The translations under genes and the position numbers were made by a program. A DNA stretch of 63,626 nt, counting the filler, from Sluysia triapertura (taxonomy: Eukaryota): assembly GCA_046118255.1 (NCBI GenBank). It is 4 parts of 4 records of this genome, joined end to end, with 100 filler letters (N's around TTAATTAATTAA, not from the genome) between each part and the next. Parts side by side here need not be neighbours in the genome. Positions count along the whole stretch, not along the records: positions 18,013 to 31,834 come from JBJNIA010017636.1; 3 more parts are not named here. One strand, given 5' to 3'. Shown one piece after another: positions 31,298 through 31,467 of this stretch. How positions within the stretch are numbered: position 1 is the first letter of the stretch; each line of letters opens with the position of its first letter. The notes under the pieces were generated by a model. It had not been told where the DNA came from. It saw nothing but the letters and a program-made list of their open reading frames with translations, and ran no database searches.

Positions 31298-31467
31298 GTC
31301 ATCCAATCAGGATTCTCTAGTATACAGTTTAATAAAACTAGACCTGATTGGATGACAGTTATGAGTACCACAATTTATTTACAACATTAGTACTGGTGAA
31401 TGATTGGCCATCATCAGTGTTGACACAATAATGAAGATTGTGACGAGTAGTGTCAGCACTGGTGATG
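31298..31467 (-). other. Twin-hairpin cassette copy B (IR-A 31298-31356, IR-B 31409-31467)
   Basis: gtcatccaatcagg...cctgattggatgac (14-bp perfect) and catcatcagtgttgacac...gtgtcagcactggtgatg (18 bp, two G-T). Confidence 0.9.

Follow-up and report, generated by a model that had tools for sequence, protein, structure and literature searches.

A common noncoding region bearing a stem-loop and promoter, joined in each unit to one distinct ORF, is the architecture of nanoviruses. Among transposable elements, the rolling-circle Helitron2/Helentron and HINE/DINE-1 elements (HLE2) appear to be the closest described counterparts of the locus reported here. Capture of a full-length gene by Helitrons is exceptionally rare according to PMC6431247, and background on Cryptons is given in, among others, PMC13465315. 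Our search of the full-text literature found no description of the module analysed here; Repbase, Dfam, subscription papers and supplements, which lay outside that search, may catalogue it.

The window, by which we mean the whole stretch of 63,626 nt that was analysed, comes from the Sluysia triapertura assembly GCA_046118255.1 and joins four parts, positions 18,013–31,834 being JBJNIA010017636.1. The DNA is eukaryotic in character, at ∼25% GC, and contains AAT microsatellites as well as assembly gaps. A tree built from 34 rows, picked from the 120 hits listed, places the PQBP1 protein encoded at 25708–26466, which is 55% identical to its best match, alongside five proteins from cestodes and three unnamed rows (support 99/92), and the host is therefore probably a flatworm. 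The first intron of this gene appears, on a by-eye reading (25614–25740), to be shorter than 40 nt. In each of the three gaps (17913–18012, 31835–31934 and 51838–51937), a 12-base all-frame stop linker separates two runs of 44 N; the flanking pieces may not be adjacent in the genome, and two of the hairpin copies described below, B and E, terminate at such gaps. A public run, X1, contains 73% of the words sampled from 22000–31800 and may be the window's own source.

Within this window we find five related copies (A–E) of a module with mirrored arms, fixed spacing, outward-reading unrelated ORFs and skewed unpaired parts. The outward orphan ORF beside every copy is new here; this ORF, the fixed spacing and the longer repeat to which the hairpins belong were all overlooked in an earlier note on this DNA.

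The hairpin module and the repeat around it

All ten IR-A arms and all six IR-B cores quoted in the earlier note were located in the window (Table 1); copy B has an IR-B of its own as well, and copy E has none. Perfect inverted repeats of at least 13 bp, with loops of 15–45 nt and GC of at least 35%, occur five times in the window and in none of 200 locally shuffled windows. Neither nhmmer nor a covariance model recovered a further copy in the window, unpaired ones included (best other covariance-model match E 0.14). The hairpin module is real, is not a product of chance and is richer than its first description. In copy E, IR-A is followed by another, different short palindrome, and the contig stops in an AAT tract at 51837.

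The hairpins belong to a dispersed repeat that extends beyond them. On the element strand its order is a T-run, a short outer repeat (clear in D), IR-A, IR-B, an AAT/TTA palindrome and a body (A, B and C), followed by IR-D (B; weak in C) and a tract of ∼500 bp (A and C) with ∼4% C, ∼20% G and a GC skew near +0.8. Body and tract are absent from copy D. Six of the ten pairwise comparisons show core likeness beyond the arms that no shuffle matched (B–D, A–B, A–D, C–D, C–E and B–E, each 0/200), and three more come close (B–C 1/200, A–C 3/200, D–E 5/200); the A–E likeness is not significant (50/200). The body of B resembles those of C (0/200 shuffles) and A (1/200). Near 9837 a candidate inverted copy of the body, which the body profile did not pick up, matches B (0/200) and not C (112/200).

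Table 1. Positions of the hairpin copies, repeat parts, skewed tracts and adjoining coding regions in the window
Feature	Position	Strand	Details
IR-A arms, copy A	8265/8302	−	
IR-A arms, copy B	31298/31343		
IR-A arms, copy C	36257/36297		
IR-A arms, copy D	44093/44139		
IR-A arms, copy E	51584/51633		
IR-B cores, copy A	8170/8207		
IR-B cores, copy C	36332/36365		
IR-B cores, copy D	44208/44245		
Copy A module	8170..8315	−	IR-A 8264–8315, core span 46; IR-B 8163–8222
Copy A microsatellite palindrome, body and G/T-skewed tract	7200..8112	−	tract 7200–7760, C 3.6%, G 19.4%
Coding pieces beside A	8552..9164	+	100 + 112 codons in two frames, away from module
Copy B T-run and short outer repeat	31276..31302	+	overlaps IR-A left arm
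Copy B IR-A	31298..31356	+	14-bp perfect arms, CCAATCAG core, core span 49 nt
Copy B IR-B	31407..31468	+	∼20-bp arms, 23-nt loop, core span 47 nt
Copy B IR-C, AAT/TTA microsatellite palindrome	31528..31565	+	
Copy B body past microsatellite	31566..31834	+	contains IR-D 31695–31744; truncated by assembly gap
ORF beside B	29906..30808	−	300 codons, away from module; short upstream piece in another frame
Copy C module	36257..36372	+	IR-A 36257–36309, core span 49; shortened IR-B 36332–36372
Copy C microsatellite palindrome, body and G/T-skewed tract	36439..37260	+	weak IR-D in body; tract 36640–37260, C 4.2%, G 22.5%
ORF beside C	35157..36065	−	302 codons unbroken, 279 aa from ATG, away from module
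Copy D module	44062..44258	+	outer repeat 44066–44086; IR-A 44093–44153, core span 49, one C/T mismatch; IR-B 44201–44261
Inverted copy of D outer repeat	42767..42789	+	22 bp, beyond far end of ORF; candidate second end
Coding region beside D	42854..43941	−	147 open codons, then stops, further 118-codon piece
Copy E, IR-A alone	51584..51646	+	core span 49
Coding region beside E	49595..51086	−	93 codons, 100-N gap, 369 codons; away from module
Tract F, third G/T-skewed tract	18330..18880	+	body motif at 18864; hairpin module absent

The third skewed tract, F, is like that of A over ∼80 bp (0/300 third-order Markov controls); the A–C tract likeness is lost under this control (270/300), and the C–F likeness fails too. 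A mitochondrial insertion was rejected as the origin of the skewed tracts, which hold 7–19 stops in every frame under code 9. A weaker fourth tract (14950–15480, minus strand) follows an AAT run and abuts a 100-codon ORF (14650–14952); it has no hairpin module and is unlike the other tracts. Because it precedes an ORF that lacks the module, skew may mark transcription instead.

Summed contig depth in X1, which is not a copy number, reaches 2772–3054 on IR-A, 36688 and 13397 on IR-B and 156–483 on the ORF side, against 47.4 for the near-identical contig, so that the ORF side is lower than the stems yet above single-contig depth. Depth climbs from ∼31250, by the T-run and outer repeat of copy B, and the IR-B of this copy has the greatest non-microsatellite depth near the module. 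The body, like IR-A and IR-B, stands out as a depth peak. The ORF side of copy B is covered by several variant contigs. Joints in X1 that run from the microsatellite back to 31248 have short, AT-rich sides and were set aside. We read these depths only as showing that related stems are present elsewhere in the run. Pairing of IR-D requires G–U in C, and in X1 the majority letters of both its arms differ from B; these letters are unphased and so leave the pairing of IR-D unsettled. Among at least 121 pattern matches listed from viral contigs, the best module match has E 0.22, and pattern scans of metagenomes gave 0. A hammerhead ribozyme candidate at 31653–31748 was discarded (E 3.7, mismatched core).

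A possible second end was found in copy D. A 22-bp inverted repeat, extending a perfect 11-mer, encloses the D ORF; HLE2 elements have short asymmetric inverted repeats of 11–17 bp at their two ends. It was equalled in 2 of 3000 shuffles as one of 60 tests (∼0.04 corrected), and it scored 29.0, against 26.4 for the best of 66 real tiles. The arm on the module side lies within a hairpin too, pairing with the left arm of IR-A, and it bears the arm variant of D; this match would fit concerted change of a binding motif throughout the element. Both copies of the repeat also resemble splice acceptors. Copies A, B, C and E yielded no perfect 11-bp second repeat, and the tract side yielded none in all five copies, those of B and E being cut by gaps at 332 and 47 bases. 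Within 4 kb, module 14-mers have no significant enclosing inverted or direct partner, and no terminal inverted repeats of a TIR transposon or MITE enclose the module. The HLE1 signature of a 3′ GC hairpin with CTRR occurs at 22 sites in the window, none of them at a position shared among copies or after the ORFs. An HLE2-type stem-loop and T-run within ∼60 bp of the inner repeat was not seen, and the shared sequence continues for several hundred bases past that repeat.

The window holds other repeats and genes. Five tRNA-like dispersed repeats, 69–85% alike (23048–23202, 40136–40291, 53422–53534, 60832–60919 and 61015–61158), probably form a tRNA-derived SINE family; three of them pass the Rfam tRNA threshold, the only matches in the window to reach one, and ARAGORN reports one with a 4-base anticodon. 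Two-copy dispersed repeats, 72–82% alike, lie at 1851–2478/16702–17386, 11643–12094/53813–54246, 794–1089/44743–45042 and 18120–18243/28242–28364, and the first two of these pairs finish in ATT/AAT tracts resembling retroposon tails. A broken gag-like region with a CCHC zinc knuckle (46594–48519, plus strand) is probably an LTR retrotransposon remnant, and a piece of a Monjiviricetes-type fusion glycoprotein (56628–57089, minus strand; Pfam PF24664, E 3e-9) is probably an env-like gene of a retroelement. The segment 6550–6850 (minus strand) looks, by eye, like a possible decayed Tc1/mariner element.

Mirrored arms, spacing and strand signals

Substitutions in IR-A are mirrored, as the earlier note had claimed. 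Of 20 left-arm departures from the majority, 12 have an identical counterpart in the right arm (null mean 3.75; 0/100000), and both sides are altered in 9 of 15 pairs (0/500 shuffles; slid controls 0–3). These tests ignore kinship among the copies, which had moreover been noticed because of their pairing, and since certain changes are common to two copies, the independent mirrored events number fewer than 12. Mirroring in IR-B is weaker (3/3, P 0.027) and concerns copies A, B and D, copy C having been omitted because its left arm is shortened. The two IR-A arms are 0.81–0.94 identical within a copy and 0.44–0.81 between copies.

Measured from a fixed anchor, the core span of IR-A is 49 nt in B, C, D and E and 46 nt in A, and the core spans of IR-B are 47, 47, 46 and 43 nt; the distance from IR-A to IR-B is not fixed (97, 112, 72 and 109). 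The span of ∼53–63 nt proposed earlier is too high for the quoted A arms, which span 50 nt, and the near-constant spacing emerges when it is measured core to core. The loops, likewise described as unconstrained, are so in sequence, with just 10–12 of the inner 27 bases of IR-A identical in all six pairs among B, C, D and E, but not in length (49, 49, 49, 49 and 46). Free loop sequence combined with nearly fixed length suggests a ruler or paired binding sites.

The signals that might single out a folding strand are divided. Five of the seven internal stem mismatches are indeed G–T, three on the element strand and two on the opposite one, the other two being transversions; these mismatches do not single out a strand. 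Any single-arm transition yields G–T on one strand or the other. Folding both strands, the check suggested in the earlier note, gives equal energies for the IR-A of copy B (−28.5 and −29.5 kcal/mol) and singles out neither. As RNA, the element strand of the whole module folds better in five of five copies, and the opposite strand of the D IR-B folds better. Within the loops, in-register Watson–Crick pairs are fewer than in shuffles (24 versus 33) and in-register G–T pairs more numerous than expected (20 versus 14, P 0.028). On the element strand, G exceeds C in the loops (42:19) and in the spacers (35:14), with P ∼0.004 for each.

Taken together, these results support the view that arm symmetry is kept rather than arm sequence. 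This upholds the reading of the earlier note in part; a folded single strand is not established by it, as the stem mismatches have no strand preference, the IR-A of copy B folds equally on both strands and the loops have fewer in-register Watson–Crick pairs than shuffles. Mirrored changes would also be predicted by inverted sites that co-evolve with a family-specific protein, or by template switching, as described in PMC8794818. The module serves as a warning: a free loop together with perfectly mirrored changes is not in itself proof of a folded RNA.

Reading frames and CCAAT boxes beside the modules

Each of the five copies has, on the opposite strand, an ORF of at least 100 codons whose start lies no more than 900 nt from IR-A (no more than 600 in four of five), which is true of 14.4% of window positions, and all five ORFs read outward, away from the module; this test is post hoc, the pattern having been noticed beforehand. 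The starts lie 158–517 nt from the anchor, and no copy has such an ORF upstream on the same strand (0/5). The frames are coding-like, with a no-stop chance of 5e-12 (B), 5e-11 (C) and 4e-9 (E) and purine-rich first positions. The ORF of C is unbroken, those of A and B shift frame, the D region has four stops in one frame over 286 codons and that of E spans a gap; some of these breaks could be small introns or assembly errors. A 150-bp tandem duplication (94% alike) lies within the E coding region at 50441–50706 and adjoins the assembly gap.

The ORFs appear unrelated to one another, the best of 45 protein pairs being equalled in 1 of 300 shuffles, which is chance level; a weak B–D likeness of DNA on the ORF side (z 2–4.6) is unsupported at the protein level. 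Module-side ORFs have no Pfam match at E ≤0.01, and among 16 window ORFs scanned against Pfam there is no Rep/helicase or other transposase; PHROGs gave a single match (0.018). Searches of large protein sets covered the ORFs of B, C and E. They returned no homologue, no usable Atlas match and no viral relatives for C, and for E no homologue among longer proteins, the set searched, Atlas scores ≤0.80 and no viral relatives. The one protein match of B, to a long repetitive protein, was set aside as spurious. Single-sequence structure models of the C and B ORFs have a mean pLDDT of 32–33. The module is absent from PQBP1 and from an unbroken 434-codon ORF (19921–21225, plus strand), which lies 1 kb past tract F and has no Pfam or PHROGs match.

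Each copy carries at least two intact CCAAT/ATTGG boxes, a motif of the NF-Y type, within 120 nt of IR-A. Eight boxes lie outside the IR-A span, where 2.1 are expected, and in none of the copies does a TATA box lie between the module and its ORF. The earlier note therefore went too far in dismissing CCAAT boxes, given these boxes and an ORF start beside each copy. In A and D, CCAAT is lost from both arms and pairing is retained. An ordinary Ig-domain gene has unpaired CCAAT boxes at 5599 and 5721.

Origin of the module and comparison with known systems

Very probably the module derives from some mobile element. More tentatively, and with rather less than even confidence, we propose that it forms the terminus of a non-autonomous mobile DNA element, which is probably of rolling-circle type (Helitron2-like), and is at the same time a predicted CCAAT promoter for a passenger ORF. 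The anatomy is what is directly seen; element class and function are putative. A replication origin, one of the functions offered in the earlier note, or a terminus fits best, aided by the G:C skew in loops and spacers. Each copy would come from a separately active lineage whose transposase needed two matched inverted sites ∼44 bp apart, used either as a duplex or as a stem. Such a lineage-wise need would keep the two arms of one copy alike and leave the arms of different copies unlike, and unmatched arm bases would be decay following insertion. The element strand may have been displaced as single-stranded DNA while being copied, and been subject to deamination; displacement would cause the loss of C from loops, spacers and the 500-bp tract and leave the stems symmetric. 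The module would then combine a protein-recognised end with a promoter for the passenger gene, and the broken ORFs at A, B and D would resemble passenger DNA, which is often broken. Counting against this proposal, the sequence common to the copies runs for 500–1000 bp, whereas the HINE subterminal repeat lies 38–60 bp from the end in PMC4067079. The lack of a transposase among the 16 ORFs scanned, the second repeat missing from A, B, C and E, the rarity of full-length gene capture by Helitrons, the non-significant A–E core likeness and the absence of body and tract from D also weigh against it. If the proposal is true, numerous orphan genes with no kinship to each other obtain their promoter, and the end of the element that carries them, from one mobile module. 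Lineage-specific genes of a flatworm could then arise directly in this way, and the rolling-circle element would be unusual in carrying whole ORFs.

The promoter features would also suit a reading that we consider unlikely, in which an old fixed host repeat gives CCAAT boxes to fast-evolving genes, often bidirectionally, and its arms are evened by template switching or by a spacing-dependent dimeric factor. The outward ORF in five of five copies, the CCAAT excess outside the arms, the missing TATA boxes and the unpaired boxes of the Ig-domain gene all favour such a promoter family; stems can be repaired by template switching (PMC8794818), and a lack of homologues carries little weight for a thinly sampled host with a PQBP1 just 55% identical to its best match. 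However, A and D are still paired with CCAAT missing from both arms, the noncoding module is conserved beside mutually unrelated ORFs, three of the ORFs (A, B and D) are interrupted, neither PQBP1 nor the 434-codon ORF has a module, and summed X1 depth is high on the stems. In the same paper, template-switch-repaired stems are enriched for loops of 4 nt, not 23–35 nt. Should the host reading nevertheless be true, the module contributes to flatworm gene control in a modest but genuine way. A noncoding module common to units that each have one unrelated ORF is what integrated segments of a multipartite ssDNA virus or plasmid-like replicon, with one gene per segment, would look like; strand skew and the variant X1 contigs over the ORF side of B agree with this, and a planarian ssDNA virus-like element is cited in PMC9241645. 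We judge it improbable: no Rep was found among the window ORFs scanned, the viral-contig matches listed and pattern scans of metagenomes gave no relatives, and loops of 23–35 nt are long for such origins. None of seven CRESS-type nonamers sits at the typical origin loop position of IR-A or IR-B, and the few nearby matches lie in AAT-rich sequence. A very doubtful variant is a segmented self-copying gene-cassette system, whose chromosomal units would share an origin-and-promoter module, each with a different orphan gene, and be copied via single-stranded circles by a helper encoded elsewhere, as an animal counterpart of multipartite ssDNA viruses or wasp polydnavirus segments.

The better folding of the element strand in whole modules, the hairpin span of ∼60 nt, the excess of in-register G–T pairs in the loops and the dependence of the C IR-D on G–U pairs could point to a structured RNA or a small-RNA precursor, a hairpin cluster in the element-strand transcript. 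The folding gain, however, follows from the excess of G over C in composition; stem mismatches show no strand bias, the D IR-B favours the opposite strand, both arms vary between copies, and only the three tRNA-like matches pass Rfam thresholds in the window. We give this reading only a slender chance. Drosha substrates need longer stems and shorter loops. The pre-miRNA cluster put forward in the earlier note is unlikely, with perfect stems of 13–20 bp too short and loops of 23–35 nt too long for such a substrate, no stem of ∼33–35 bp with a short loop, a single folding strand and a conserved arm, and Rfam matches far below threshold. Very improbable, too, is that the module is the end of a Crypton-type element with a tyrosine recombinase, or that it is the promoter half, rich in palindromes, of an LTR before a gag-like ORF. 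Animal Cryptons have no terminal repeats and plentiful non-autonomous copies (PMC3212892), and the promoter half of Sirevirus LTRs bears palindromes (PMC4728375). Recombinase-site spacers are 6–8 bp in the former source, not 23–35, and no recombinase domain was found by Pfam in the window ORFs scanned, including those beside the modules; self-comparison revealed no second LTR, the copies have no primer-binding site in common, and no gag/pol domain lies beside any module.

Under the preferred reading, a rolling-circle terminal module, several features are shared with HLE2. There is a T-run at the module edge and a short repeat nested with a hairpin arm, a microsatellite follows the core, long terminal repeats are lacking and passenger DNA is present (PMC4067079, PMC7492417, PMC5148889 and PMC11417382). 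Copy D adds an asymmetric inverted repeat with its inner copy within a hairpin (PMC5148889 and PMC4067079). The unit differs from HLE2 in its two large palindromes with loops of 23–35 nt and fixed spacing, in a second repeat found in one of five copies (two flanks being cut by gaps), in the 3′ stem-loop and T-run end, which was not found, in whole coding-like ORFs of one fixed orientation and in the absence of RepHel from the window. It seems most like an HLE2 derivative, yet we do not class it as a member because it lacks the short distance from inner repeat to end that is a defining feature.

Like nanoviruses, the locus has a common noncoding stem-loop and predicted promoter region with one distinct ORF per unit; unlike theirs, its units are larger and chromosomal, stand among animal host genes and have no nonamer loop or Rep. 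NF-Y-dependent CCAAT promoters of the TATA-less or bidirectional type share the CCAATCAG cores, in both orientations and upstream of ORFs; here, in contrast, the arms reach 13–17 bp, mirror their changes through the CCAAT core and form a repeat family. With the cis-region of Sirevirus LTRs the module shares a putative promoter region built of palindromes that are conserved more in their arms than at their centres (PMC4728375), whereas it has no LTR pair, primer-binding site or gag-pol, and its arms lie far apart. Non-autonomous animal Cryptons, compared by description and not by Repbase or Dfam sequence, differ in the recombinase, which is absent here, and are alike in their many copies, ill-defined ends and lack of terminal repeats (PMC3212892 and PMC5753468).
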